20,000 bases of DNA from Psammoneis japonica (lineage: Eukaryota), in NCBI GenBank assembly GCA_008632985.1, contig QPGO01000036.1:302122-322121 (forward strand), in the 5' to 3' direction. Of the stretch, positions 1 to 18,947 are shown piece by piece. The notes beneath the pieces are model-generated. The model searched no databases, was not told the origin of the DNA, and saw only the letters and a list, made by a program, of their open reading frames with translations. The first letter of the stretch is position 1. Every line of letters starts with the position of its first letter. The position numbers and the translations under genes were made by a program.

Positions 1-840
1 GACCAGGACAGAGAGTGGATTGCGACAGGAGTGTGCCATTGTCATTGGCAGATGTTGGATTGGAGAACAGGTTGTGAAGGACAGATGTGACAGAAACAGA
101 GCAAAACAAAGGGAGAGAGCTGACAAATGGAAGCAAAAGGGAGCAAATGGAGCTGTTCTCAATGAGGTGAACATGTGAACAAAACAAGCCACACAGGTGA
201 CTTCAAACGAGCAAAAAATCTTTCAATTGTTCATGAGTTAAAAGCTGTGAAGGGACAAAATCATCATCCATGTAAATTGAACAGATGTGGAAACAATCAG
301 CACAAACATGAAAATTTTGACAATTGATGAGTGCCACTCTGTCCAAGCATGGAAACATGTCACAGATGGTTGCAGCCCAGTGCACTTGCAATGTGGCATG
401 TCTTTTGTTGGGCACTGAGTCATGTGTGCAGTTGACAGGACTCAAGCCCTTCAACCTGCAACAAGGGCAGAGCTTGAAAGTGTGCACAGAGGACAGGTGA
501 AACACTTGACAGGCTGAGGCAGGACAGCCATGTCACATGCTTGGGAGGTTTGCAGATGAACCACAGAGTCCAGAGGGCATGTGTGCAGAGTGTGGGTGCT
601 TGGGAGTCATTCTTGTTGGGAGCATGTGCAAAAGTGACACCCCTGTGTTCTCTTCAGGACATCAGAGAAAACCCAAGTTTGATTGCCTGCATGCACTGCA
701 ACTGGTTGCTGGCTCTGCTTCAACTGTTGTGCACTCACCAAGCGCCATGGATCATGAAACACCACAGGGCCCCAAAGAGAAAAATGGAAAGCACGCTGTT
801 CACTCATCACGTGTGTGGAGAAGGAACTGCATCACAAATT
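1..840. other. TpA/CpG-depleted hypermutated island 1 (relic sequence, open at the window start)
   Basis: Hand count for 1-720: 2 CG and 2 TA, with none of either in 301-720. The minus-strand ORF 203..505 is Cys/His-rich with a single Tyr. Composition returns to normal over ~850-950. Confidence 0.85.
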
Positions 841-1067
841 CACAAATGGCAAACGGGAAGCAAATTAAGACTGTAGCGACTGTGCTCCGCTCAAGAATCA
901 AGAGTGGAGTGACTTTCTGCGAATGCTTGGGTTAGCAACTGCCAGTGGATTCAACAATCGCTGCAGTCGGTGCGACGAAGAACTAGCGCTTGGATTCATT
1001 GCGGGCTAGATGACAGGCTGTTCTAATCCTTAGATAGATTTTACTAACTTCTCTACAATCAGCTTGA

Positions 1068-2281
1068 TTATTTGTTCATGACTGCTTTGACAAAGGCATC
1101 GATTTCTTTCTCTAATTGCGCCTTTTCGTGCAGTCCGTTGATCAGTTGCGGCGGCAGTTTGTCTTGCCCGGCCCTGCCCCCAAGATAGCGCCAAGAATAG
1201 AGCCTCGGTGAACATTCTCACCACCAACATTAGCATTGGCAACTATGCCCGTCCAAACATCTCCAAACGGTAAGTACTTGCATATCATGTCTAGGGTGGG
1301 GGCCAAGCTACTTGACAAGTAGCACGCTGTCATTTGGTCTTGCCTCCTTGACGACGGCATGGTCCGAAGGCCAAACTTTATCGCTGTTTCTCGTAGAGAC
1401 GTTGACATGTCATCCCCTTTCTCACTGGGCTCATGCACGGAATCATAAACGAAGGCACCCCAAGAATGCCCAATACGTTCCAGTTGCTTCGATCGTCTAG
1501 TGACAGATGCTGTCTCAGCAGCGACCGCTGCTGCCTTGTCCTTGTTACCGCCACTCGCACTTGCGGCTAGCGCAGCAATCGTAGGGAGAACGAGGCCGTC
1601 AATGGTATCTACATTATGCTGGTCGTTGTCGGGGCACTGCTCTGGTGGCAACTTTTTGAAGACTAGGTTGGCGAAAAACATTCGATGGCAGGTCGATGCG
1701 TATGTGTCGTTGTGGCTGCCTGGTGTCATCATGAAATCCAGGTATGCCTTACGAAAATGGTTCGAATCAAAGACACCATTATTGGCAACGATACTTTTCA
1801 TCAGCACCCTTCCCAACTGGGCCTCCAAAGTGTTCTCTCCTCTGGCGAGTGTGGCGTGGTAATGAATTGATTTTTTCGGGTCCCACAATTCGCGCTTTCC
1901 GTGATTAATGACATCGCCGATAATGGAAATGCCGCCATTTTTCTTCGAAAACGAGCCACGTCCGCCGCCGTTGACGTTGCTTTTATTAAGAATGGAGCCC
2001 GCAAGATTCAGTTTGGGCCTTGTGTAGTCTACGATGCCTTCCGCACCATAATCTGCCCGTATTTGACGTGGTCCCCCGTAGTACCAGTGAGTCGGCGCCG
2101 CCAATGCATCACCCGCAAAGAAACCCCACAGCGCTCCCCTTATCCTCGATTCCACAAGTGCCGCAGTATTACCACCTGCACAGGTGGCGCTCGAAGACAT
2201 TATTGAATGGGAAGACGATGGACAGAGAAGTAGGAACAACGCAATTGAAAGCGCCTGAGATGATTTACCCAGCGGCTTCAT
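1068..2281 (-). CDS. ADP-ribosylglycohydrolase (DraG/ARH family) protein with an apparent 1-nt deletion near 1172-1181
   Basis: Family-like motifs RIRGALWGFFAGDALA, NTLEAQL and ANANVGGENVHRGSILGAILGA. The ORF ends at 1142, but a shifted frame continues AGQDKLPPQLINGLHEKAQLEKEIDAFVKAVMNK to TAA at 1068-1070. The span is 1214 nt, one short of a multiple of 3. Hydrophobic N-terminus (ALSIALFLLLCPSSSHS). Confidence 0.85.
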
Positions 2282-2830
2282 GCAACTTCAATCATCCAGA
2301 ATTTGAATGGCAATTTGTAGTAATTTTTCCCACTCTGATCGCCACGATCAGCGTCACTCCGACGCCATTGCCCTGGCGCCAGATCGAGGGATTGACTGAC
2401 TCATCGGAGTGGCTCAATCGCAGTGCGGACAGCAGTGATACCGGTAACCATCCACGACCACGACATGCTCCGTCAGCCGTCAGGCCTCGCACGACTCGCG
2501 GAAACTTCCCGCGCAACCCCAGTCGTATACGTGACTAACAATTCTTCGCGCGACTTCGTAGAAATGTACACAGAGCTCAGTAACAAGCTTTTTCAGTGAT
2601 GGAGGGTTGTGGTCGCGTTTCTGCAGCGAGAACGCGAAGCGATGAAACTGCGGTGAATCAACGAATTCAACGCTTTGTACTGCTCCATCAGTTCCCAAAA
2701 ACAATCAAGAAGTGACTGGTGACTGGAGAGCAACAAGACGTACTACTACAATATCAAGTCGTCCCACTCTTTGCATAGAAGCACCAAGTGTGACACGGGC
2801 AGCTTGTCAATCGACACCTCACAATACACT

Positions 2831-3745
2831 ATGACGACTACGGTTGTTGCCCAACCCCTCTATGGTGAACACAGCTTTCTTTCTCGACTCCTTTTCAGTG
2901 CGACCGACGCAAGTCCTGTCATGATTTCTAGCGATTCTTCATTTGATGCAATGTTGGTACACGATGCACCTTGTATTCCATCCATGGATGACCTTCGACC
3001 TTCACGCACAAGGGTCAAAGACGAAAAGATGCCGTCCCCGGATGAGAAAGCTGAAGCAAATACCGAACACCGTAAATCCGCTTGCAGTGGCGTACTCCAC
3101 AAAGACGCTGGGTTTGCACTAGTTGAAGCAGCTAATATACAGTTCAACTGCAACAACAGGGAAAGAGCATTTGCATTGTGGGACGAAGCGCTGCAACTGC
3201 AAAGAAAGCTACTAGGTCTGCGCCATTTAGCTGTTAGCCGCACCCTCGTAAAGAGAGGCATTGCTTATTGTAAAATTGGCTCATACTACGAAGCAATATT
3301 GGATTTGGAAAGTGCATTCCACATTCAACAACGAGAATCGCAAAAAATGGTAAACGAAAACAATCGAGTCGACGGCGAAGACCCGCTACTTTTATTGGAA
3401 ATGGCAGACACCCTTTTAAACCTCGGTAAAGCTCAACAGAGATACGGTTCCCTGGAAGAGGCCATACATAGTCTTTCGCAGTGTTCTGCTCTGACGAAGC
3501 AATACTACGGAGAAGTACACCCGAGAGTAGCAAAAGTGGAGTGCCTTATTGGAAAGTTTCACCAGCAGCAAAGGCATTTTACAAAGGCTCTGTCATCGTA
3601 CCGAAGAGGATTAGAGTTGTACAAGCAATGCGGGGTCCAAAAGCGCCATCCAGACGTAAGATGGGTGCACAAATGTCTGTCAGATCGAAGCATGGGAGCC
3701 GACCGATTGTTTTGGTCTCGGAATTGCTTAGATAATACCATATGA
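2831..3745 (+). CDS. Tetratricopeptide-repeat (TPR, kinesin-light-chain-like) protein
   Basis: First ATG at 2831. Helical repeats such as AFALWDEALQLQRKLLGLRHLAVSRTLVKRGIAY, MADTLLNLGKAQQRYGSLEEAIHSL and YGEVHPRVAKVECLIGKFHQQQRHFTKALSSYRRGL. Confidence 0.8.
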   Translation: MTTTVVAQPLYGEHSFLSRLLFSATDASPVMISSDSSFDAMLVHDAPCIPSMDDLRPSRTRVKDEKMPSPDEKAEANTEHRKSACSGVLHKDAGFALVEAANIQFNCNNRERAFALWDEALQLQRKLLGLRHLAVSRTLVKRGIAYCKIGSYYEAILDLESAFHIQQRESQKMVNENNRVDGEDPLLLLEMADTLLNLGKAQQRYGSLEEAIHSLSQCSALTKQYYGEVHPRVAKVECLIGKFHQQQRHFTKALSSYRRGLELYKQCGVQKRHPDVRWVHKCLSDRSMGADRLFWSRNCLDNTI

Positions 3746-3875
3746 CTCTGTGTGCTACGCGCTACAGTGACACGACGATAGAGAGCGACAGTTACATGCT
3801 AACTTTACAACAATAGAGCACTGCTTTACGAGAATAGCGAACTCCCCACATGTCTACTCGGTCGCGGAGAAATGC

Positions 3876-4040
3876 AACGAAATAATAGGTGTGACTTGTT
3901 GCTTGAGCTTAGAATTGAGATTAATGGATTTTAATTTGTGCTCGAACGCTCTCAACAACGACTAATAGGTGTGACTTGTTGCTTGAGTTAGAATTGAGCT
4001 TAATGGGTTAAGGTGTGTTCAAACGCTCTCAACAACGACT
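3876..4040 (+). repeat. Tandem direct repeat, two diverged ~80-bp copies
   Basis: taataggtgtgacttgttgcttgag...aacgctctcaacaacgac begins at 3883 and again at 3963. Confidence 0.9.
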
Positions 4041-4547
4041 TTAGATCTCGCGTCGGAGATGCGAGGAAGCAAGAATCCCCTCCTGCGTGAAAGCATCATT
4101 CGTCGCCACGATTACGTTGCACCGATTGATGAGTGGTGCACGCGTACACTATTCCCCGGTAAAATTGAGGATGCATACGCACTCTTTGGTAGTTTTCTCC
4201 CCACCTAGTGTACGAACAATTCTTGTTGATACACGATGCTTGTGAAGACTTGGCAGAATCGTTTGAAGCCTCGGATCGAGCAATCATCAGTAGTAGTGAG
4301 GACCTGGATGAGTACGTGGACGAGCCGAACTGACGTGACAGCACTGCAACATACCGGTAGGCAAAGATGAATGCTGATGTGGAGGAGCGTAGCATTCTTA
4401 GCATATCTTTTGACGAAAAGTGAGTGGGTTTATGCATCAGAAGATGAAGATGATTCCGATTCCACGGAACTGATCGGGCTCGGGGCTGCAGCATGTGCGG
4501 GCTTTCCTATTTGATGAACGAACGCAGACCCGACAATGTCGTCGCGT

Positions 4548-5714
4548 TCATTGCATTTCTTTCAGAAATTCAAGAGCCGTTTCGAAGGACATCTTGTCTC
4601 TGGGTATGTCGGAACGGGTTTCCAAAAAAGCATTCCAGTCCTCCATAAAGTGCTCAAAAGTCAAATGTTCGCGTTCAGCATCTGTAAACAACACGTTGTA
4701 GCACCTCATCATATCCAACAGCCCCTGCTTGCTAGAGCAAGCATAACCCTCGTCTTCTTGCATCCAGTCGATCTTCAAACGTGCTTCTCGTATCGGAGTC
4801 AACATGGGATTTGATGACTGAAACCAGTGATTGTTGCAGCTTTGGATGTGCTGATGCACTAGATCCCGGTCCAAAGCACTTGCGGCAGTTTGCTTTTCAC
4901 AAATCAAAACACTCACATGTTTTCTATAGTTTGAACTCGGGTCGAAAGTACCAGAGGACCATACGGAAGGCATGGTAGCTGGAGCGTCTATATGATCCTG
5001 ACTATCATTTGAAGGTGACGAAGCTTCCAGTGCTGGGGCGAGATTTTGATGAACACCTGTTGCTTTTTCGTTTTCACTTTCGGGGTCCAAGTCACCGCCA
5101 GACGAAACTGAAGCTTCCACTATTCTTGGCATGGCGTAATACCCGACTGTCCATGTAGCCCCTGGGCAGTCTTTGAGTATTCGAGAAATGAAGTTGTAAT
5201 CATGAAACGATACTACAACATAGATACCACCCACCTTCAGACTGTCATGGGCCAAGCACAACAGCCCGGCCGCGGCATCATCGTTGGAACACATGACAAA
5301 ATCTAAGGTCGATTTGTCCACCGCCAAATCAAAGTACTCGCTTGGTATCTGCTCTACTACTATGCTTTCGCTGAAATCCATCCTCACAAACTCCATCTTG
5401 CGGCTCGCTTCTTTATCTCCGTTGAGTCTTCTTCCCCATCGATTCTCTATTCTGTCAAGGGCGTCAGCATCTCGATCCACATTGACAACATGACTGAAAC
5501 CCAATTCCTGAATTAAAACTTCTCCCAAGACTGAGTCGCCGCATCCAAGGTGCAGTGCCGATCTCTCCATATCACACGCATTCTCCGGCCGAGACAACCC
5601 ACAGATTCTCGGCTTCAGCAGGGCTCCTAAACTTTCTGCGCTTGTAAGCCATTCAAAAGGGCATTCGGTATCTTTTGACGTCCGGCTTGTATTTGTGGCT
5701 GATTTCCTAGCCAT
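4548..5714 (-). CDS. Class I SAM-dependent methyltransferase, EEF1AKMT4/METTL13-like
   Basis: 388-aa ORF with FEWL, motif I LHLGCGDSVLG, post-I VNVD, motif II FDLAVDKSTLDFVMC, and LKVGGIYVVVSFH. Confidence 0.8.
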   Translation of the reverse strand: MARKSATNTSRTSKDTECPFEWLTSAESLGALLKPRICGLSRPENACDMERSALHLGCGDSVLGEVLIQELGFSHVVNVDRDADALDRIENRWGRRLNGDKEASRKMEFVRMDFSESIVVEQIPSEYFDLAVDKSTLDFVMCSNDDAAAGLLCLAHDSLKVGGIYVVVSFHDYNFISRILKDCPGATWTVGYYAMPRIVEASVSSGGDLDPESENEKATGVHQNLAPALEASSPSNDSQDHIDAPATMPSVWSSGTFDPSSNYRKHVSVLICEKQTAASALDRDLVHQHIQSCNNHWFQSSNPMLTPIREARLKIDWMQEDEGYACSSKQGLLDMMRCYNVLFTDAEREHLTFEHFMEDWNAFLETRSDIPRDKMSFETALEFLKEMQ

Positions 5715-6033
5715 GATACTTATCCATGGGGGACTGAGGAAACATCATCAAAAGTACGGAGAAGTTCGTGAAAGCATCATGGCGAACGAACCCAGAACGC
5801 TGAACGCTCGCCGTTATCATATTTGGTTTGAGTTGCCGCCGACACGTGGCGCGTGCGCATGGCTTTCGCTCGTACGTCGCTCGTCGCCCATTTTTCATGG
5901 TATTTTGTCTGTCCACCCACCCGGCAGAACAGCATATTACAGTACAAGTATGCCCGATGCACGATGACGAAGGCACTAACTGCCGACGCTCAATAAGCGC
6001 TATCTTCGACTTTCTTTCCAAAGCGACACGACA
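5715..6033. promoter_or_regulatory. Probable bidirectional promoter containing a G-box
   Basis: 319-bp gap between divergent ATGs (5714 on minus, 6034 on plus). GACACGTGGC at 5841-5850. Function is inferred only. Confidence 0.4.
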
Positions 6034-6792
6034 ATGGCCACAGTCTCATCTACGAGTCCAGACTTACCAGTCATTATAATTGGCGTTGCAGGCGGCTCGG
6101 GTTCAGGAAAAACGACCTTGACGAAGCGAATCCAACAAGAGCTAGGCGATGAAAATGTGGCGTACTTGCTCCATGACAGTTATTACAAAGGTGGGCGCAA
6201 AGAAGCGACGAAACAAGCTATAGAATTTCACAAATAGCTCTTATGCACTGCCTTACCCTTGTTCTGTGTCGTATCTTTACTTGTAGACATCACACACCTG
6301 CCGATTGAGGAAAGAGCAAAAACAAACTTCGATCATCCTGATTCACTAGATACGGAATTGTTGGTTACGCATATTTGCGCCTTGAAGCGAGGACTATCTG
6401 TAGACGTCCCACAATACGACTTTACAACGCACAGTCGAACCCCAGTTACCACACCGATTGCCCCCAAGAAGATAATTTTGGTCGAGGGCATACTTATATT
6501 TTCAAACCCAGATCTGGTCAAAAATATAGATTTGAAAGTCTTTGTTAATACCCAGGCCGACGTTCGATTCATGCGTCGGCTAAAGAGAGACATGGAGTCA
6601 CGTGGTCGAACATTTGATGAAGTCGTAAGACAGTATAATGAAACTGTTCGACCCATGCACGACCAATATGTTGAACCGTCGAAACACAACGCGGATGTGA
6701 CTGTGAACAACTCCGATGGGAACTACGCAAGCATGAAGATGACTGTGAGAATGATTACGAATCACTTGCGTGTCGAAGCAGGCTTACTCTAG
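6034..6792 (+). CDS. udk: Uridine/cytidine kinase; exons 6034-6190 and 6287-6792
   Basis: P-loop [14 protein letters not shown], then HDSYYK^DITH across a GT...TAG intron (6191-6286, phase 1), [31 protein letters not shown] and [13 protein letters not shown]. Confidence 0.93.
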
Positions 6793-6919
6793 AGGCTGTT
6801 GAAAAGCCTAAGGTATTCCACTGGGACTACCTGAACCTGTACAGCAATGTTGGATTTACTTTTTGTTCGTCCATGCGATGACAGTCACTTAGTTTTGCAC
6901 AGATTACTAATTCAGCCCT

Positions 6920-7972
6920 TTAAAAGCATTCAAAGATGTCATCTGGAGGTTGAATATCAGAACTTGAAGGGTCGGGGAACCAGCAGAAATCAATTTTTCG
7001 CAAGGCCTGTAGTCTTTCGTCGTTAATTCCGGAAACGGTAATGTTGTGGGTGGTGCCGTGATGATGAACTGAATGTACATATTCACGACACGTATGCCTC
7101 TGATGCCGCACCCAGGATCCTAGCTCGGGGTTCGCATCGTATTGCTGGGGGACGTTACAATGCCCATACTTCTTGTTGAATACAACCAATTCTCCAAACA
7201 TCCTCCACCATTTGTCACGTTTAGGTGCCCAAGAAAATCCCACAACATTCAACAGCTCTATTTGCTCACTCGTTAAAGGCTTGTGAGGTGCTTTTGATGT
7301 CGGACTGTTCGATTCCCTATATCTGCGCCGTTGTTCAGACACCCATCTCCCTAACGCAGGGTTCTTACTGTACGTCGACGGAACTAGCGCATGGCCGTGT
7401 TGTTCTCGGAACTCTACAAGTTGGTGAAAGCGGATTTGCCAGTTGGCACGATGCATGTTCCATTCAAAACCCAACGATCTCAATTTCTCAATCCGTTCTT
7501 GGGTCAAGTAGGGCAATCCACGTGAGTACTGTGCACGCTGATTTCTAACCCAATCGGCGAGCTCCTTGTACTCTGTACAACCAAAGGTCGGCTGAGGCAC
7601 ATGGCAGTGTCCATGCTTTTCCTTGTACGCGCGTAACTCTTCAAACCTCTCATTCCACCGTTGTGTAGCATAATTGGTCACGTCTTGCCGTTTTTTTTCT
7701 TCTTTTGGAATGACGCTCGTCCACGGCGTTGTGTCTGCTCTCGAACGACTAGAAGCAAACCCAACACTAGTGTCGTTTGAAACAGAAAAGGGTGGTATTG
7801 AATAGGATACCATTTGCAAACGAGAGTCTGTGTCTCTTCTATGGCGCTTGAAATTCCGACGACCCATGGCAATGGACGCATCCAAAGGCCTGCCTCCTCT
7901 AGACAACATCCAAGCGGTGCATGTTGTCAAAACGAGCGAGGTCACAGTGACTACAACCGGAAAGTTTACCAT
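6920..7972 (-). CDS. Helicase-associated (HA, PF03457-type) domain protein with three HA repeats
   Basis: Three repeats of W..RF.EL..F...HGH..VP...L..WV..QR...L..L.F.W, e.g. WNERFEELRAYKEKHGHCHVPQ...LTQERIEKLRSLGFEW. Hydrophobic N-terminus. Confidence 0.88.
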   Translation of the reverse strand: MVNFPVVVTVTSLVLTTCTAWMLSRGGRPLDASIAMGRRNFKRHRRDTDSRLQMVSYSIPPFSVSNDTSVGFASSRSRADTTPWTSVIPKEEKKRQDVTNYATQRWNERFEELRAYKEKHGHCHVPQPTFGCTEYKELADWVRNQRAQYSRGLPYLTQERIEKLRSLGFEWNMHRANWQIRFHQLVEFREQHGHALVPSTYSKNPALGRWVSEQRRRYRESNSPTSKAPHKPLTSEQIELLNVVGFSWAPKRDKWWRMFGELVVFNKKYGHCNVPQQYDANPELGSWVRHQRHTCREYVHSVHHHGTTHNITVSGINDERLQALRKIDFCWFPDPSSSDIQPPDDIFECF

Positions 7973-8519
7973 GGCTTGAGTCGATTTTCACACCTCTCGA
8001 ACGTGTAATCTTTTCGCCGTATCAAATACCATTTTCACTAGCTAGGACAAGAACATCAAGAAATGCAGTGGCATTCGTTTGCTCTGACTCACTGTCCCTC
8101 CATCATCGCATCCGCACAGTGATCCCCGATGTAGAACAAGAATTGGGTCATGCGTGACGTCGATCCGCCACCACAAAAAGACGTCACTGTTTTTTACCGG
8201 TATTTGGCGGGAAGAATAAAAACGGGGTGACGTGTTGATGTTGAGGTCGCGGATGCCGATACCGTAGATGTCAAAGACGATGGATACAGTGCCGTGTCTA
8301 TTGTGTATGATACGAACGACGAGCTGGAGGAGCTGGGCAGCTTTAACTCAAGGAGTTTGCTCCGACGTCGCCGCTGCATGACACCAATAAACGAGGTGCT
8401 TTTGGAATTGCGGGGCGCGACTTGGTTGGCATTGGCAACTTTGTTTGCGCTGTTTTAGGTGTGCTTGTGATTACGAGGAGATTGTCTGAATCTTGGATTG
8501 TAGTGTTTCTCTGCCGAAG

Positions 8520-9780
8520 ATGGGTTTTCTCCCACATCGACAGACGCTGTTCTTTTGGTTGATCTTGGTGCATGCTGCTACCGCTTTTGGAGATATCCCA
8601 TCAATAGCTCGTTTGCCACGAAAAGTTTTGGTTACTGGAGCAGGTAGGGGGGAAGGCATAGGCGCGAATGGCGGCGAAATGTCAGTGTTTCTTACACTCG
8701 AGAAACTTTTTTCATTCTTTTTTTAGCCGGGCGCACGGGTATGCTGGTTTTTAATTCGCTCACGGAAGACCCTCGCTATACACCAGTGGCCATGGTCAGA
8801 ACAGAATCAAGCGCAAAAAAGTTTATGAGAGTTTCCAAATGCGGATTAGATCAAGTAATGGTGGGCGACGTTACAAAAATGGAGATAGACCAGGAAGAGA
8901 CATTGCCGAGTGGATTGGATGGCACTTTCGCCATGATTATTTGTACTTCCAGTATGCCTTTCTTGAGCAAAAGATCTCTACTCAAAGCATTCTGCAAGGT
9001 ACCCTTCAATGTGTTGAGAAGAAAAAAAGCGCTGGACTTTCGAACATTACGTTTTAAATTCAGGAAGGGACAGTATCCCGAGAAGGTTGACTACGAAGGC
9101 CAAAAAGTACAAATCGATCTCGCGAAGAAGCTTGATATGAAGCATGTCGTACTCGTCAGGTAGAGAAGATATGCATTGTTGTGAATCACTCGCACAGCTC
9201 AATTGAAATGTAACTTGCTTGTTTCCTTTCCTTTTCGCTTGTGTCAATCAAACATTCCCTGTGCCACAGCTCAATGGGTGGTACAGATCCCAACAATTTT
9301 CTTAACTCGGTTGGAAAGAAAGCAGATGGCACTGGCAATGGGGACATCTTGCTGTGGAAACGAAAGGCGGAAAGGTATCTTGTAGAGGTACGTAAGATCC
9401 GTTTTCTGCAGTTGTGCCTTGTCATTCTCTCCTAATGTTCTGCCACTTGCGCTTTGTCTTTCTATCATGTTGCCCATCTTTAATATAAAAAGAGTGGACT
9501 TCATTATACAATAATTCACCCAGCTGGATTGGTCGATACACCACCCGGGAAGGAAGAGTATGTTTTAGACGTGAATGACAAGCTATTTGAAAGCTCCAAA
9601 CGAAGTATTGGGCGTGCCGACGTTGCCAACTTGTGTGTGGCATCTTTGGCCTTCGATCAAGATCTATCCTTTGACTGCATAACAAGAGTTCCGCTAGATT
9701 CCAAGCCATTACCAGATTCAGCAGAGAAGGCGATTGCTAGCTTCCTCAGAAGTGGCAAGACAACAGACTATTCCCGATGA
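8520..9780 (+). CDS. NAD(P)-binding Rossmann-fold protein (atypical SDR, NAD_binding_10 / At5g02240-like), probably plastid-directed; exons 8520-8643, 8727-9159, 9270-9387, 9493-9780
   Basis: Splicing at GT-AG sites yields VLVTGA^AGRTG (GxxGxxG), YPEKVDYEGQKVQIDLAK, VVLVS^SMGGTDPNNFLN, ILLWKRKAERYLVE^SGLHYTIIHPAGL and SIGRADVA. The signal peptide ends at AATA-F. Confidence 0.88.
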
Positions 9781-9980
9781 ATCCTCACTTACTCCAGTAG
9801 TCATTGAAGCCGTATCGGAATTCATCCATAATGTCACTATGCAATAGAGTTGACCTTAAGCCTAACCTGCCCAAGCCCATTGATAGGATTAGAGAAAGGC
9901 GACTGGCTTCCGGAATATCGGTAAAGATTTCATGCTCGTGGCTGGTTAACGACAAGCCCATAGCCCAATCTCTTTGTCTG

Positions 9981-10117
9981 ACTTCGAGCCAAAGTAAGCT
10001 AAATGGTTAGTGTAAATCGTTAAGTGTCATTTCCACTTCGACACAAAGAAAGCTAAATGGTTAGTGTAAATCGTTAAGTGTCATTTCCACTTCCATACAA
10101 AGACAGCTAAATGCTTA
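9981..10117 (+). repeat. 54-bp tandem repeat, ~2.5 copies
   Basis: aagctaaatggttagtgtaaatcgttaagtgtcatttccacttc at 9996 and 10050, with a partial copy cagctaaatg at 10104 and acttcg at both 9981 and 10035. Confidence 0.9.
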
Positions 10118-10330
10118 ACGGTAGTGGTCAGATTTCAAAATCTGAGCAATACAGAAATGTCAATGATGAATAAGGATTTTAGATTGCTTCTGCCGTAAAT
10201 ATCATTACGCCAATGCCACTAATGAATACACAAATGAATTTGTATTCCATCCTTTTCCTGAACTTTGATCTATCGGCATTTTCGATACGAGTGCTCGACG
10301 CGATGACAATGAGGCATGCTTGTATGTGTC

Positions 10331-10720
10331 ATGGCCATAAGCTGTGAGGCGTACCGTCACATTTGGATTGAACTCGGGGATCTTGATGTCGAAAGTAGCC
10401 ATTTGTTTGACATTCGTGATTTTTCATCGCCCACAAACTGGGATTTCAACTGAGTCGAGTTGATGTTGGACGTGTTTCAAAGCACTGCGTTTGATGAAAC
10501 AATTGAGGGCTCTGGAATTATGGCATTTTATGCCATGGAGACTTAAAACAGCAAATGGGTTGACAATCAAGCAGTGATCGGGTTTGCCAACATTTCCAAA
10601 AATGTGACAACAAAAGTTGCATCACTCAACAACCAACAACATCTCAAGAGATGGAAACAAGAAAAGTGACTCCTCTTTGCACTTGAATTAAAAGAGACAA
10701 CAATGCACAACAAACATTTG
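10331..10720 (+). pseudogene. Degenerate reading frame of unknown identity crossing into island 2
   Basis: One frame reads MAISCEAYRHIWIELGNLDVESSHLFDIRDFSSPTNWDFN*VELMLDVFQSTAFDETIEGSGIMAFYAMET*NSKWVDNQAVIGFANISKNVTTKVASLNNQQHLKRWKQEK*LLFALELK, with stops at 10451 (TGA), 10544 (TAA) and 10667 (TGA). Confidence 0.4.
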
Positions 10721-12480
10721 AGAAGGACAAGAAGCTCTTGAATGCATGGAACCAGAAGAGAGTCAATGAATCGCTCTTGTTTTGAACCTCTTGACCTGTT
10801 CTGTCCATGATGGTGGTTGGCTGAAAGGTTGGTGGTGGTTTTTTTGTGTGACTTGCAGCTTGAGGCATGTTGATGCATGAACACATGGCCCATGTGTGGT
10901 GTCACCTTTGGAAAGTGCCACTTGTGGAGCTTGGGTGGACAACTCTCTGTGCTCAAGCTTTGTCTGCCAAATGCTCCATCAAAGTCCAGATGCTGCCACA
11001 TCCCACCCGACCATTGACACAAAACAGTTCTTGCAAAATGTTGTTGCCTGTTTCCCTCTTCCTCTGCAGAGCAGCCCTCTTGGTGACAGTGCTGCCCACA
11101 TGCCAGAATGTGCTCAAGAATGCTTTCCATTTTGCCAGCAAAGATGCCCAACGCGGGGCTGTGTGGGCTCGAATCTCTCTCAAGACAAGCTGACATTTGT
11201 GCCTGGCACTGGCGGCAATGCTCAGCCCTCCTTCCTGTTTGACTTCCCAGGAGTGTGCCCAGATCTCCTGCGTGCTGAGTGGCTCAACCACAAGAGTCGC
11301 TGTCTTTGTCAGTTTTGTCAGCAGGATGTGCCAAGGCTGCTCTGGCCATGTGTGCGCAAGGACAGCTGCGACAGCGCTTTCTGCTGTCAGCAAAGAGTGT
11401 GAGCTGGCTGGACTGCCCAACCCCACACTTCACAGCTCCTTGGCAGTCACTCCAAATCAAGTGCCAACTTGGGGTCAACCGCACCTGGCTGGTTGCAATG
11501 CAAAGACAGCTGTGGCAGCACTTTGTGACAACAAAGAGAGTGCGAGCTGGCTGGGCTCCCAACCCCACACTTCACAGCCCCTCAGCACTGGCTCCCAATC
11601 AAATGCCAACTTGGGGCCAATGGCTGTGAAGCCATCATTGCAAATCCCTGTGCCTGCCCCCTCACACAGCTTTGCACAGGGTCAACATGTGTGGCCTTTG
11701 CAAGATGGGCCCTGGCTGGCTGCTGGCTCTTCAGCCACACGGCTTGCACAACAAGCCACCACAACACAGAGCACTGTGGGGTGAGTGCAGCACAGCCCAA
11801 ACAAGCACACCATGCTGAGATCACCCAGAGTTGGCTGCTGTCCTGGGGCTCCATTCAAAGCTGGGCTGGGCTGCTTGGCTCCTTGGTGTGCAGCACATGC
11901 TTGGCATCACATTCTTGTTGCCAAGCAGCCACATGGCATGTGCCCACCATTTGTGCCTGCAACAGCGACCCCAGCCACAAAGAAGCCAACAAAAAGTTGA
12001 ACCTGGTTTTGTGGTTGAAGAGTGAAGAAACTGTGAGTGAAGTTTGGTTCAAGATTTGTTGGCAATGCCAAGTGCGCAACCAAAGAGAGGCGCCAAAAAT
12101 GGCTGTTCTCGCTCATTTCTCAAGAGGAGCTTGCGCTCATGATGCAGGGTCTGAAGCAAGCACCAGCCAAGACAACAGTTTTTTCTCTCTGCCCCACTTA
12201 AAACACAGCCTTTGAGTCAATGTGGTGCTCCTTCAACAACTCACGCACACTGGGAAGAGCAGCTAGAGCCAGGGCAGCTGGCCTGGCAGGGCTTGGCTGA
12301 CACCCAAGCTGGGCTGCTCAGCCTGGTGGCACACACTCAGTGCCACATTGTCACCCTCCTGCAACTGCAATGTGCCCCACTCTTTGCACCTGCAGCAACC
12401 ACCCTGGATCAAAAGAAGCCAGTGCAACTCTGGCCATGGTTGCATGGTCAATTGTGTGTGTGTGTTCAACGGTTGATTCC
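10560..12480. other. TpA/CpG-depleted hypermutated island 2 with relic plus-strand coding sequence
   Basis: Hand count for 10561-12480: 3 TA and ~22 CG. No TA at all between 10691 and 12198. ORFs are Tyr-free and Cys/His-rich. Confidence 0.88.
11361..11620 (+). repeat. Diverged direct repeat with ~144-bp period inside island 2
   Basis: gacagctg...caaagag...gagctggctgg...cccaaccccacacttcacagc...tgccaacttgggg begins at 11361 and at 11505. Confidence 0.85.
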
Positions 12481-12762
12481 CCTCTTTTTTTTCTCTTTTC
12501 CTTTAACCGGCCACGGACATGAAAAAATTGCCGGAATATCGAGAAATATGCGTTTGTCTGTTCAATGACTTGAGTGCGAGTGACGTCCCGCCTTGTTTTT
12601 TCCGCTTTGCTACCGTGCGTCTGCGTTTTCACTGTGAAGCACGCAGCACGCAATGAGCACTGATTGTCTTCACTTGCGTCTCGCTCAGTCTCTCCCGCTG
12701 TTGTGTGCTGTTTGCCTTACTTGTGCATAAACTTATCAGTGTACGAGCTCCTCTGCGGGAGA

Positions 12763-13885
12763 ATGGAACGATCAGTACAAGCAGATGAGGTTGTGATATC
12801 GATAGAAAGCAATGGTGACGTTGATAGTAGGAAACTGCAGCAAAACGACCCTGAAGAGCAAGGCATTGCATTCACGTCACGAATCGAACACCGGATTACT
12901 GCTGAAGAAATTGGATTGTCTTTTCGTACGCTTCAACCGACTGATAGGCAAGTCATACAAGAACTCCATGAGGAATGGTTCCCTGTTTCTTACGAAGACG
13001 AGTTTTACGATGAGTTGGTCAAGAACCGTATGTTTAATTCTGGAGCGCCTCTGTTTTCATGCGTCGCTATTCACCACCCAAAGCCGCAACTAACGTCACG
13101 GCTTACAACGAGTGATGGAGTCATATTTCACTTTGAGAACTACAATCCCAAGGACATTCTTTGTCGAGAGATAAATCCTGTGTCAAGCACAACGAGCAAT
13201 TCATCGACTGTGGATTCCAGTGACAAGATTGTAGCATGCGTCGTGGGGTCATTTCTTGATGCCTCTCGTGTCTGCAAGCACACGCGGGATGTGTTGCTTG
13301 ATAGGGGAAGAGCTACAGACAACACCAGCAAGTTGTTTTACATTATGACCTTGGGCACTGTAGCAGAATTTCGGCATTTAGGTTTGGCCACCATGCTGGT
13401 TGAGAAATGCATCGACTTGGTGGAAAAAGATCCTTCGTGTGGAGCCCTCTATCTTCATGTCATTACCTTCAATCATGCAGCCATTCGATTTTATGAAAAG
13501 ATCGGATTCTACCGTGTAGAAGAAGTGGAAGGTACGTTTGTGCGTCGAGAACGATGCTCTTGCGCAAACGAACATGTAATGAATGGCTTCTAACGTTCTT
13601 CTGAGTAACGCATTGCATGCGTAGACTATTATACAATCAATGAAAAGCGCTACAATTGCTATCTATATGCAAAGTACTTCCATGGTGAGTTCGCGCAAAC
13701 GAGCAGTGTTTTGAAGCTGCACTAGAGTAGAGATTATGCTCGTTCCTTAGACTGCGATTCTCCTATTTTCCGCAGGAAATCGAGGACAGCGTGGCATTTT
13801 CAATTTCGTGTCGACAATAGTTTCTACTGTTTGGGATGGTGTCTTGGCACCAGTCTCATTGCTACAAGAGCTTGTGGTTGGTTGA
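12763..13885 (+). CDS. NAA60: N-alpha-acetyltransferase 60 (NatF, GNAT family); exons 12763-13531, 13625-13684, 13776-13885
   Basis: LHEEWFPVSYEDEFYDEL, YIMTLGTVAEFRHLGLATMLV and LYLHVITFNHAAIRFYEKIGF. The spliced continuation is ^DYYTINEKRYNCYLYAKYFH^GNRGQRGIFNFVSTIVSTVWDGVLAPVSLLQELVVG*, an amphipathic tail as in NAA60. Both introns are GT-AG, phase 1. Confidence 0.85.
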
Positions 13886-14939
13886 TGGCAGAATGCTGCA
13901 ACAAGAATGCCTTCCCAATGTAACGAGGACGAGTTCTGCGTAAAAAGTATCACGGATGTTAACATCTTGATTCAACCCGGCGAGAACAATGTGTTAATTT
14001 AATTCCCAAAATACGCTTGCGGTGAAGACCTTGTGCTGTTCCACTCCGACATTTTTCGGAGAAGACCATTAAAAAAGAATGTGGGTGTGAGGCCACTGAC
14101 AAGACAGAGATTCCTGCGGTGGGTTGATACCATTGTGGGCTGCTCAGGCGTTGATGGGACGGACACCCATCTTCTTCCTAAGACTTCCTAAGACCTGCTT
14201 TTTCGTTTCAAAGTGAGTGGTCGTCACGTCTGTACGGAGGGCGAAGCGAAAATTTCTTTTCGTGCGGATGTTTGACACTCCCGATGACTCTAGTGTCGAC
14301 TCCAAAGACTACGACAATCAGAGAAAGTCTATCGGGTGATAGCCGCGGTGATGGTGATTCACCACGAGATGCGAGGCATTTGTGGCAACGAGTATCTGGA
14401 TGTTCGTGTGGTTACGATGGACAGCAGGCGGCAGGGAACACTTATGGTGTGGATGTTGCAAACGAGCTTGAGCTTTTGGATTTCGGAAACGATGGGTAGA
14501 AACGGGCAATCGAGTTCAGATTCCTTGAGTATCTTTTTCCAAAGATGGCTTAAGTCCCGAGTAGAATCGCCATAATTCGGAAGGAAATGGCGTGGCGGGT
14601 TGTTTGAGTCGAACCTCTCTTTTCACAACGCGATCTAAATACATTAACATTGTGGCACTACATTAGGGGGTACAGCTGCGCTCGGCTGTTCGAGTTGCTC
14701 TATAAGATTGCTTCTACTTTACATGGGGAATTGTTGATGTACTGCTGTAACATGTCAGGTCGGCTATGCCATTGTGCCAAGTCTCTTTGCATTTTCAACC
14801 CAGATTGCAGTACATTCTTTGCTCAAAACTTCCGCGCAACTTTGGCTCCAGATTCCAAACGTTTGGACAGATTTTTCAGATGACAGTGGGCCGAGTCTCA
14901 TCACCCTGCACGCTTCTCACCAAATTTCTCTTACCAGCC

Positions 14940-16595
14940 TTTCTTGCCACAAACTTTCAACTCATGGATGATGTCACATGGTGTCCTGAAAAGTGGGGTC
15001 TTGTGATGCTCTCACAGTTGGGCACCTTGATGCATTGTTGGATGTGATGTTTTTTCCAACTTCCCCACTCTGTGCAATGAAGGTGATTTGTGTGCAGCAA
15101 GTCCACAGGTGCAGTGTGCTGCACACTGCACACTGTGCAACAACAATGCTGACAGTGGACAGTGGCTGGATGTGAGGAACTGCTGGACAGCTTTGCATTG
15201 ACATGTGATGCATGTGCTTTGTGAAAGTTCATCAACTGGTGGCATTGACCATTGATTGGCATTTTTCTGCCTGGTGTGGGCAGCAGGTTTTGACTGGTTT
15301 GACTTGAGCAAAGCAGAGTCAGCCCACAAAAACAATTTGGTGTCAAAGTGGGGAGAGCTGACAGCTGCACAAGCACCCATCTCCAACAAAGGCAGCTGCA
15401 CTCAAGGACAAGGAACAGCATGTGAAGCAAAGTGCAAAATGTGGACAAGGAGCTTGTGCAGAAACAGAATGTCCAGCCACTGCAAGAGGCTGAGCAAGAA
15501 GCAAGAAGCCAGAGGGGGGCAAGAGCCCACACAGAGAGAAGAGTGGTGTGCACTGTGCCTTAAAGAGCTGGGTAGAAGGGGCAAACAAAATGCCAAAAAG
15601 AGAAATTGTGAGACTGTTTTGGGCACCAAAAGCAAGCAGGGTCAGGGTTGGGGTTAGGGTGTGACCCAGCAAGAGAGCTCATTGCCACCCCCATCAGCTG
15701 GCTGGCCAAGAACCCTGCACAGGTTGTCCATGACCAAGCAGTGCCCCACAAAGTGTTGCTTTTCAATGCCACTTTGAGGTGTGCTCCAGTTGCAGCTAAG
15801 AGCTGCCTCACAAAAAACTGTTTTGACACTTGTCACAATCTCCCAGCATGCAAATGTGTGATTGGAGCCTGCAAAGGGCATCTCTCTGCAACCATGTGCT
15901 GCTTCTGTCAAATGAGAGCAAGCACACTTGCTCCATGTGAGTGGACCTCTCTGCAGAGCTGGACAGTCATCTTTGCAGCTTTGGTGCAGAGCTCCCAACC
16001 CAATGCTTCACAGAAACACCAAGAACAACAAGAGCAGAGACAATGGAAAGCACCTGTGTGCATTGGAGCAGCAAGCAGCTTGAGCAACAACAAAAAGAAA
16101 AAGGGAAAGAGGAACAAAAAGAAGAGCAAAATCCAGGCGTTTTGTGTTTGCAAAAAGCTTGGGAAGGTGCAGCATCTGAGGTGGCCAGAAATGATCTCTG
16201 AAGGTGCGGTTTTGTGATGATGACATGTGAGCAAAGTCAAGAAGCCACACAAAGACAAGCAAGTCAACTTGGCACAGCATTGGCCAGAGTGGCAGCTCAA
16301 GAATGCACACAATCACCTGCAGGGCACCACCAAGCAGCATGGCCACCCTGGCCAGCTCCCACAGCTCTCTGTCACAGAGCTCTGCCTCTTGCAGCCTCAA
16401 TTCAGGACACTTTGTGGCAAAGTTGAAAAAAAATGTGATTTGATCAACACGTGCCTGATGTGGAGGCAGGAAGAAAGTGGGCAGAACTGGCTTGTGAAAA
16501 AGTGCAAACTTCTGAGAGAGGTGAGCTGGAGTCACGTTCACCCCCAGCAACTGCTGACGACATCAAAGAGCCTTGCTCTGCTGCAGCGTGTGCGC
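14940..16595. other. TpA/CpG-depleted hypermutated island 3 with relic plus-strand coding sequence, ending at the assembly gap
   Basis: Hand count for 14941-16440: 4 TA and 2 CG, with none of either in 14941-15540. Long Tyr-free ORFs at 15256..15657, 15648..16217 and 16227..16595. Confidence 0.9.
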
Positions 16596-17131
16596 NNNNN
16601 NNNNNNNNNNNNNNNNNNNNNNNNNNNNNNNNNNNNNNNNNNNNNNNNNNNNNNNNNNNNNNNNNNNNNNNNNNNNNNNNNNNNNNNNNNNNNNNNNNNN
16701 NNNNNNNNNNNNNNNNNNNNNNNNNNNNNNNNNNNNNNNNNNNNNNNNNNNNNNNNNNNNNNNNNNNNNNNNNNNNNNNNNNNNNNNNNNNNNNNNNNNN
16801 NNNNNNNNNNNNNNNNNNNNNNNNNNNNNNNNNNNNNNNNNNNNNNNNNNNNNNNNNNNNNNNNNNNNNNNNNNNNNNNNNNNNNNNNNNNNNNNNNNNN
16901 NNNNNNNNNNNNNNNNNNNNNNNNNNNNNNNNNNNNNNNNNNNNNNNNNNNNNNNNNNNNNNNNNNNNNNNNNNNNNNNNNNNNNNNNNNNNNNNNNNNN
17001 NNNNNNNNNNNNNNNNNNNNNNNNNNNNNNNNNNNNNNNNNNNNNNNNNNNNNNNNNNNNNNNNNNNNNNNNNNNNNNNNNNNNNNNNNNNNNNNNNNNN
17101 NNNNNNNNNNNNNNNNNNNNNNNNNNNNNNN
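16596..17131. other. Assembly gap (536 N)
   Basis: Run of N. Confidence 1.
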
Positions 17132-18109: not shown

Positions 18110-18947
18110 AGACAAATATGTAGAAGCATGTGTCAATAGGACGATGAATACGCTCTTTGAAGGAACATGTCGCAACCCTTCATCCGAGTATCGTATACAC
18201 TCCGTCCGTTTTGCACCTACGTAGATTGCATCTGGTAATTTCCTCAAAAAATGAAGCTATGGAGGCTCGAAAGCATCTTGCCCTCGGTGTCCTTCAATTC
18301 GCAGGCGCATCCGCCGTCACGCCAAAAAACGGATGTGGCTCTTTGCCACTGCACGTGATTTTACGACGCAACATGAAAATGGACAATACCAATAAGGAGC
18401 GCTTTGCTTTTGCAATGATTGAAGCTTATCCAGAAGCTCTTCTGGTTGAAGGTAGTGTTACGAAATGCACGCCGCTCCACATTGCTTTCACGGACTATAC
18501 TTCAAAAGAGTTTGCAAAGTTCATTATTGAACGCGGTCGAGGAGCGGCAGCGACGAGGGCGCAATGATTGGCTACCGATTCATGTGGCGTAGTCGTCACG
18601 TGTCACTGGCCAAGTTGAAAGTTGAAGATGCTCCTCGAGGCGAATCCCGAGCTTGCGATGACCGATGATGGCGAATCCATCCTTCACCTTGCTGTCAGGA
18701 CAGCAACCATACTGCATCCAAATTTCTGGTTGATGCGAATATCAAGCCATTGATGAAAGAAGCGGGAGTCCACACGGAAGCAATGATGAATCAAATAATA
18801 GAAGCAAGATCCCGTGCTGTGAAAAAGGCACCACGAAAGAAACGCCGCGCCGGGCGCAAACGAAGACGTCAAGTCCAACCGGGCGGAGATGCAGCAAATG
18901 TGCTTTTACACTTTGACCAGAATGTATCCGTGGGATCTCCAAGTTAA
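18110..18947 (+). pseudogene. Ankyrin-like repeat pseudogene (several frameshifts and stops)
   Basis: GSLPLHVIL...MIEAYPEAL...CTPLHIAF (ORF 18157..18567). Shifted frames then give NDWLPIHVA*, SRHVSLAKLK and KLKMLLEANPELAMTDDGESILHLAVRTATILHPNF, followed by a basic tail KKRRAGRKRRR...AANVLLHF. There is a 7-bp duplication (aagttga x2) at 18612-18625. Confidence 0.7.

Follow-up and report, generated by a model that had tools for sequence, protein, structure and literature searches.

The finding that 231 of the 302 nuclear single-nucleotide mutations in mutation-accumulation lines of the chlorarachniophyte Bigelowiella natans lie in regions of integrated giant-virus and virophage DNA (Mettrop et al., bioRxiv 10.64898/2026.01.13.699255, a 2026 preprint) points to a TpA-specific, region-targeted hypermutation that has so far been shown in this one organism. 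All but one of these mutations (230 of the 231) are A>G or T>C, transitions that the authors place on TpA, and they arise in some lines only, at a rate of about 6e-7 per site per generation, approximately 1000 times background. The B. natans genome contains 124 clusters of TpA-poor and CpA+TpG-rich 1-kb windows—defined by Rho_TpA of at most 0.43 together with Rho_CpA+TpG of at least 1.52, with at least three consecutive windows making up a cluster—as well as a class of coding sequences in which TpA has a frequency of 0.0018 and DDE and reverse-transcriptase domains are over-represented. As the agent, the authors suggest an ADAT2-like enzyme that deaminates adenine in DNA, and they cite ADAT2 enzymes able to deaminate A as well as C in DNA; the available text of the preprint reports TpA only, the word CpG being absent from it. 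Here, we describe three islands in the genome of the diatom Psammoneis japonica in which both palindromic pyrimidine–purine (YR) steps, TpA and CpG (TA and CG), are almost absent. They lie within a stretch of 20,000 nucleotides (the window; contig QPGO01000036.1, positions 302,122 to 322,121, assembly GCA_008632985.1), and one of them forms the core of a transposon with terminal inverted repeats (TIRs). On balance, it appears probable that TpA-specific A:T>G:C hypermutation, combined with the decay of methylated CpG, drove all YR steps of the islands to TG or CA.

Composition was measured by a 300-bp profile and by listing every TA and CG in the window. The preliminary description of this DNA, made from its letters, had marked three blocks comprising 4417 bases, and its counts of TA/CG were reproduced: 2/2 in 1–720, 3/22 in 10560–12480, and 4/2 in 14940–16440. 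Together, the blocks hold 9 TA (observed-to-expected ratio, obs/exp, 0.03) and 34 CG (0.12), compared with 638 TA (0.61) and 829 CG (0.99) in the rest of the window. TG (514, obs/exp 2.0) and CA (517, obs/exp 1.76) are correspondingly abundant, the values for the rest of the window being 1162 (1.21) and 1083 (1.18), respectively. Refinement of the borders gave the following islands:

1 to 860, no strand assigned: island 1, with 2 TA and 6 CG (94 to 860 alone, 2 TA and 5 CG)
10545 to 12500, no strand assigned: island 2, the TA/CG-free element core, with 3 TA and 22 CG in 1956 bases
14933 to 16595, no strand assigned: island 3, with 4 TA and 7 CG, ending in a 536-N gap

The start of the window truncates island 1, and island 3 runs into the gap (16596–17131), so that the lengths of both are minima. 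The refined islands contain 9 TA and 35 CG, whereas 190 and 247, respectively, are expected at the frequencies found elsewhere in the window (binomial test, log10 p = −69 and −66, respectively). The borders are sharp, and those for TA and CG coincide within approximately 60 bp. Directly beside the islands, TA and CG are normal, with 13 TA and 13 CG in 861–1141, 33 and 24 in 9921–10544, and 14 and 15 in 14576–14932. Tandem Repeats Finder detected nothing inside the three islands, and the blocks are not of low complexity.

The four YR steps (TA+CG+TG+CA) add up to 0.242 within the islands compared with 0.247 elsewhere, and the sums of the purine–pyrimidine steps are likewise equal. When a simulation collapses TA and CG outside the islands, the frequencies of TG and CA become 0.126 and 0.121, respectively, compared with 0.115 and 0.117 observed in the islands. 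Since the YR skeleton is kept while TG and CA are doubled, transitions—which preserve this skeleton—account for the collapse, and the conversion of TA and CG to TG/CA via transitions is supported in all three islands; the preliminary description had read the two palindromic steps in the same way. The dinucleotide AA is not depleted (obs/exp 1.23–1.24 in the islands versus 1.13 outside), so that the target is TA rather than WA (W being A or T). A runs test of TG against CA gave z values of −1.3 to +1.2 and hence no strand-coordinated clustering. Equal numbers of TG and CA without strand clusters are what palindromic targets struck on both strands, or prolonged toggling between TG and CA, would give. 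The few remaining TA within the islands tend to share a context, as 4 of the 9 lie within TTAA(A) compared with 35 of 638 elsewhere (p = 0.001):

239, 10689, 12199 and 15561 (and 10544 at a border): residual TA in TTAA context

For residual CG, a GCGC context is found in 6 of 34 cases versus 50 of 828 elsewhere (p = 0.019). TTAA and GCGC may be contexts that the process handles poorly, although the cases are few.

Two duplications inside island 2 record how YR steps changed after the copies had separated:

11828 to 12018 against 12271 to 12451, plus strand: old internal duplication, detected by a search in the purine/pyrimidine alphabet
11354 to 11479 against 11498 to 11621, plus strand: younger internal duplication

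The old duplication, missed by nucleotide blastn, reaches 99.6 and 142 bits, whereas shuffles stay at or below 70 and 78, respectively. In its better part (11844–12018 versus 12287–12451), uniform scoring yields 105 identical positions, 35 transitions, and 24 transversions; 11 of the 32 aligned YR steps are TG↔CA doublets, and 13 transitions fall outside doublets. Unrelated pairs of island segments give a null expectation of 1.7 ± 1.3 doublets with a maximum of 5. The younger duplication (81.6% identity in blastn) shows 13 transitions, 4 transversions, 1 TG/CA doublet, and 3 differences of CG versus TG/CA; a global alignment of it gives 18 transitions, 7 transversions, and 2 doublets. In two tandem repeats of normal composition in the window, there are 0 doublets and single-step differences of the TA/CA, TG/CG, and CG/CA type are kept. 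Differences between copies were taken from contigs of four public runs, all of one sample, that were aligned to 1–16595 (single-copy depth 58.5). The comparison comprises 34 unpolarised differences inside the islands, which are among 40 listed of 142. It includes 3 TG→CA doublets among the listed differences, and 3 of the 18 single transitions create a TA or CG, versus 8.1 expected (p = 0.012), while 5 destroy one. Bases of residual TA and CG vary at 6 of 88 positions compared with 28 of 4391 elsewhere, an approximately 11-fold excess (Fisher p = 4e-5).

Any change from TG to CA passes through TA or CG. Selection against these intermediates would make doublets far rarer than single transitions, and doublets are in fact at least as common. 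The pattern therefore fits mutation better than selection, with TA and CG as neutral, very short-lived intermediates. The ratios (TG+CA)/(2*TA) and (TG+CA)/(2*CG) are 57 and 15; if the islands are near equilibrium, these values would be rough lower bounds on the rate of loss over the rate of gain for TA and CG, respectively.

Island 2 resides in a transposon flanked by a target-site duplication (TSD):

9921 to 12531, no strand assigned: non-autonomous TIR transposon of approximately 2.6 kb, recognized by empty site, depth, TIRs, and TSD
9910 to 9920, plus strand: left TSD copy CCGGAATATCG, 10–11 bp, identical to 12531 to 12541
12531 to 12541, plus strand: right TSD copy CCGGAATATCG, direct repeat of 11 bp
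9919 to 9949, plus strand: left TIR arm, 31 nt, 77% complementary to 12503 to 12533
12503 to 12533, minus strand: right TIR arm, 31 nt, pairing with 9919 to 9949
9921 to 10544, no strand assigned: left arm of ordinary composition, 33 TA and 24 CG in 624 bases
9981 to 10142, plus strand: three 54-bp subterminal tandem repeats with normal TA/CG
10205 to 10402, minus strand: open reading frame (ORF) of 65 aa in the left arm, without homologue

The element is recently inserted, recently mobile, and present in high copy number. A 12.5-kb contig (X2 record 6) covers 94–9909 and then resumes at 12531–15191; because it skips 9910–12530, it represents an empty site, that is, an otherwise identical haplotype from which the element is absent. 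Summed depth over 9973–12188 is 6581–8479 and thus corresponds to the order of 100 copy-equivalents. A 211-nt contig on 10364–10574, mostly arm and carrying 4 TA and 7 CG, matches the window with 0 mismatches at a depth of 3043, or approximately 52 copy-equivalents. The TIRs form the longest inverted pair in the region, with 25 of 35 positions identical when counted from the ends. Since the arms keep normal TA and CG, depletion of the core is older than this insertion, and the depletion at the island 2 locus was consequently inherited rather than acquired in place. The 54-bp subterminal repeats, just inside the left TIR, are possibly binding sites of a transposase.

Based on TSD length alone, the transposon may be classed as a Mutator-like element (MULE). 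An active MULE of Phaeodactylum tricornutum is described as having TIRs of about 200 bp and a 9-bp TSD (bioRxiv 10.1101/2023.01.02.522487). The P. japonica element resembles it in bearing TIRs flanked by a TSD in the range of 9–11 bp, in its recent mobility, and in the occurrence of deletion derivatives; it differs in the length of the TIRs, approximately 31 nt, and in lacking a transposase ORF. No MULE/MuDR transposase domain was found by Pfam in any frame of the element core, a scan that did not include the 65-aa ORF of the arm, and exact-pattern scans with the TIR consensus and an island 20-mer returned 0 loci in metagenome contigs and 0 in viral contigs. Five contigs join the right end of the element (12532) head-to-tail to its left end (9920) with 5–7 other letters in between, each at 0.5–2 times single-copy depth; these junctions could be tandem dimers at several loci or forms with joined ends.

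Islands 1 and 3 are repeated only in part. In island 1, 94–860 lies in a single-copy contig and high copy number is confined to the first 150 bases or so; depth is 331 in the bin 1–554 and 74 in the bin 555–1108, with 18 contigs at place 113. Island 3 is single-copy from 14933 to approximately 15160, the remainder being repeated at a summed depth of 497–852. Its family includes deletion-derivative relatives, as many contigs skip 32–670 bases or swap 66 bases (15386–16176). As the single-copy parts of islands 1 and 3 are depleted and the high-copy arm of the transposon is not, copy number and depletion are not simply linked. Two further observations concern island 3, namely an A/G-rich stretch at 16088–16130 that varies within the repeat family and a 34-nt near-perfect palindrome at 15104–15137 built only of CA/TG-type steps.

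The DNA of the three blocks is non-coding and transposon-related, and each island is repeated at least in part: island 2, the greater portion of island 3, and roughly the first 150 bases of island 1. Pfam assigned no family to the 6 long island ORFs and gave 0 credible matches on 18 read-through island frames, the one match being at chance level (E = 0.23); the scan of island frames revealed no viral or transposase domain. ORFs reach 238 aa because the islands contain almost no TAA or TAG stops, and their lengths are within those of dinucleotide-preserving shuffles (p = 0.19–0.59). For the 238-aa island ORF and the 65-aa arm ORF, no homologues were found within the length limits of the search. 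A codon model trained on window genes 'burnt' in silico—that is, with TA and CG collapsed—placed no window above the null, in a test of low power. The period-3 signal is moderate, at 2.5 in island 2 and 3.0 in island 3, compared with 1.7–4.6 in genes. Rfam gave 0 matches. Among the three islands, homology was detected neither by blastn nor, above shuffles, in the purine/pyrimidine alphabet.

Of the systems described so far, TpA hypermutation in B. natans comes closest. In both cases TpA is turned into TpG/CpA on both strands, with a TpA frequency of 0.0018 there and 0.0020 here, and the islands lie beyond the composition thresholds of the preprint (TA 0.03, CA 1.76, TG 2.0). Measured against its rule of three consecutive 1-kb windows, the islands span 1.96 kb, at least 1.66 kb, and at least 0.86 kb, the latter two being cut. 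Transposon or foreign DNA is involved in both organisms: DDE and reverse-transcriptase domains there, and here the core of a TIR transposon together with islands that are repeated in part, which matches the class of foreign, viral, and transposon targets. As judged from the preprint, the B. natans process seems to act in episodes and not constitutively, and activity of this kind would agree with the unburnt arms of the element. Based on this likeness, a process of the same kind is a candidate for the loss of TA in the diatom. The preliminary description had postulated an A:T>G:C process at TpA and left open whether such a process had been described before; B. natans provides the experimental precedent, and TG↔CA toggling fits hypermutable TA and CG.

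Despite this resemblance, several differences exist between the two cases. B. natans is a chlorarachniophyte and thus a member of the Rhizaria, whereas the present host is a diatom and thus a stramenopile. The evidence in B. natans consists of de novo mutations in culture lines, while the islands preserve a fossil signature only. The process in B. natans chiefly strikes a giant-virus insert present in one copy and a virophage, as opposed to the non-coding repeats and TIR-transposon core affected here. CpG has been lost alongside TpA in the diatom, in contrast to B. natans, for which the available text of the preprint reports no CpG effect, and TG↔CA toggling does not feature in its Results or Discussion. 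A search of the literature, with subscription journals outside its reach, returned no account of diatom islands that are depleted in TpA or free of TA and CG. What is new here is the co-depletion of CpG, the diatom host, and the toggling signature, TpA hypermutation itself having been described in B. natans.

Fungal repeat-induced point mutation (RIP) shares with the islands the dinucleotide-specific transitions that saturate repeats, the sharp boundaries, and the logic of genome defence. It is opposite in direction, however, as conversion of CpA to TpA raises TpA and lowers CpA/TpG, whereas in the islands TpA falls to 0.03 and CpA/TpG are doubled. Duplication alone, which triggers RIP, was not sufficient here, because the high-copy left arm keeps its 33 TA and 24 CG. 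Decay of methylated CpG, as in vertebrate and plant transposons, resembles the CG ratio of 0.12 with a matching excess of TG/CA in repeat DNA, and diatom repeats are reported to be methylated predominantly at CpG (PMC5124317). Unlike the loss seen in the islands, such decay cannot remove TpA. ADAR and APOBEC enzymes, which hyper-edit retroelements and viruses in animals, likewise produce deaminase-type transitions with a neighbour preference (5′ U in the case of ADAR) and serve in defence. Their substrates are RNA or single-stranded DNA, and the clusters that they leave are strand-coordinated, whereas TG and CA are interleaved in the islands and the carrier is a DNA transposon.

The proposed mechanism comprises two processes. 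In one, TpA would be converted into TpG or CpA by TpA-specific A:T>G:C hypermutation of the kind measured in B. natans, for which adenine deamination on DNA by an ADAT2/TadA-like enzyme, as proposed there, is a candidate. In the other, CpG would become TpG or CpA through deamination of 5-methylcytosine. As both targets are palindromic, both strands are hit and TG equals CA. At saturation, any TA or CG newly made by an ordinary transition would resolve fast, half of them reverting and half proceeding to the other dinucleotide, and this form of resolution would make YR steps toggle between TG and CA. The process would have run until internal duplicates diverged mainly by toggling. In the case of island 2, burnt DNA would have served as the dispensable core of an element that was later amplified to approximately 100 copies and inserted here recently. 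The unburnt TIRs and arm could be explained in two ways: either transposition continues solely in lineages with intact ends, or the core had already been burnt when it was joined to these ends. The data themselves show the composition, the kept YR skeleton, the toggling, the build of the transposon, and the empty site together with the copy number; within this scheme, we infer the enzymes, the methylation, the role in defence, and the reason why the arms were spared.

A number of observations weigh against this account. Although equally high-copy, the left arm of the element retains its TA and CG, and the arm contig without mismatch at about 52 copy-equivalents means that copies have stayed unburnt since amplification and that the process is not simply repeat-induced. 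Other copies of the element are equally TA/CG-poor, so that the transposon lineage of island 2 may have inherited this composition or been selected for it. The evidence for toggling comes mainly from one pair of duplicated segments, in which the fraction of swapped YR steps (34%) exceeds what a simple model predicts from the 13 non-doublet transitions; the differences between copies carry no direction of change and are 40 listed of 142. The simple collapse simulation does not match a deficit of ApT (obs/exp 0.66 in the islands versus 0.94 outside), low GA/TC, or high AG/CT and GpC. Finally, the three islands share no detectable homology. The preliminary description had argued for region-targeted burning of silenced DNA. 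Its collapse of TA and CG onto TG/CA is supported, while burning in place does not hold for island 2, where the core was inherited and where other copies are also TA/CG-poor—an outcome named there as refuting the idea. Nor is repeat status a sufficient trigger, given the arm at about 52 copy-equivalents with 0 mismatches.

The composition might instead be intrinsic to, or selected in, successful transposon lineages, the main rival explanation, to which we grant a minor but real chance. Copies with CG would be silenced by methylation and copies with TA hit by a TA-directed defence or by insertions targeting TA/TTAA. Amplification would then continue solely from masters with a dispensable core free of both dinucleotides, the islands representing 'stealth' cargo rather than damage acquired in place. 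This would suit island 2, whose element has moved recently, is present in high copy number, and shows a perfect 10–11 bp TSD and an empty site. It would also suit the equally TA/CG-poor further copies, several of whose differences are common to many contigs and thus at the level of subfamilies, the arms with normal TA/CG in about 52 copy-equivalents, and the sharp borders, which resemble those of an insertion or capture. However, lineage selection would require deleterious intermediates to be rare, and the 11 doublets are not rarer than the 13 other transitions. It cannot act in immobile DNA, yet stretches of about 700 bp in island 1 and about 230 bp in island 3 are TA/CG-free despite being single-copy (at an identity of at least 85%). 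Moreover, three unrelated sequences share the depletion. We know of no function that selects against TA in non-coding DNA down to an obs/exp of 0.03.

A wider version of the hypermutation account would postulate a defence of diatoms that is RIP-like but opposite in direction and burns foreign and transposon DNA at YR steps. One deaminase family might act on A in TpA and on C in CpG; the system would be homologous to that of Bigelowiella and ancient in the SAR group (stramenopiles, alveolates, and Rhizaria), and its burnt product would be an uneditable, unmethylatable 'stealth' filler that is amplified by non-autonomous transposons. In this extended form, the proposal is speculative and rather unlikely to hold in full. 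Removal of TA and CG by one YR-step-directed process, be it an ADAT2/TadA-like deaminase of A in TpA and C in CpG or one repair pathway, would make a separate decay of CpG through methylation unnecessary but is a decidedly unlikely alternative. It would account for TA and CG borders that are the same within approximately 60 bp in three islands, and ADAT2 enzymes that deaminate A and C in DNA are cited in the B. natans preprint (bioRxiv 10.64898/2026.01.13.699255). The same preprint, in its available text, reports TpA only, the target base is 3′ in TpA but 5′ in CpG, and the degree of depletion differs (0.03 for TA versus 0.12 for CG), while the well-established decay of methylated CpG is already sufficient for the loss of CG.

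Error-prone repair by a polymerase-eta-like enzyme with its WA motif, or general GC-biased gene conversion between repeats, is very improbable. A>G changes at TA do belong to the polymerase-eta WA spectrum, and repeats supply partners for conversion. AA, the other WA dinucleotide, is nevertheless undepleted (obs/exp 1.23–1.24 versus 1.13), GC-biased conversion would favour CG, which has been lost, and G+C is only modestly higher in the islands (50.3% versus 47.3% in the rest of the window). Among the agents considered in the preliminary description, polymerase eta and biased repair or conversion are thus disfavoured, and DNA adenine deamination or modification survives as the candidate, by analogy with B. 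natans. An artefact of sequencing, assembly, or contamination is scarcely credible, for although island 3 abuts an N gap and the runs carrying this DNA all stem from one sample and may be the source data of the assembly itself, so that agreement of contigs is not independent proof, one contig (X2 record 6), with no more than 6 mismatches overall, runs from island 1 through nine kilobases of ordinary diatom genes into the beginning of island 3, four runs agree letter for letter, and TSD, TIRs, and copy variants are typical of real transposons.

If TpA hypermutation in combination with CpG decay did shape these islands, a saturated signature with loss of CpG in a diatom would mean that dinucleotide-directed editing of mobile DNA extends beyond chlorarachniophytes, into a different and ecologically dominant lineage with genetically tractable model species. 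The test based on TG↔CA toggling needs no outgroup, and with it hypermutable intermediates can be told apart from a selected composition in any assembly. Islands of this type also defeat repeat detection at the nucleotide level, as exemplified by the old duplication in island 2, which came to light solely in the purine/pyrimidine alphabet; homology in such DNA would escape standard repeat finders.

The DNA around the islands carries ordinary host genes, with mostly long and uninterrupted ORFs between the islands. Pfam identified an ADP-ribosylglycohydrolase, a TPR protein, a methyltransferase, a uridine-kinase/PRK fragment, a GNAT acetyltransferase, an ankyrin protein, and a protein with three HA (helicase-associated) domains:

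6920 to 7987, minus strand: gene with three HA domains (Pfam)

Diatoms have an expanded family of HA domains, in keeping with the host assignment. For the ADP-ribosylglycohydrolase, 705 homologues were obtained at E ≤ 1e-10 with a top identity of 67%, and since the organisms named among the 120 listed are all diatoms, the window is diatom DNA and not DNA of Bigelowiella. In the 300-bp bin 18601–18900, which may just be coding sequence, there are 4 TA versus 16.8 expected and 20 CG versus 19.2 expected. A 77-bp tandem repeat (3875–4040; 2.1 copies, 87% matches) occupies the intergenic region between the TPR and methyltransferase genes.

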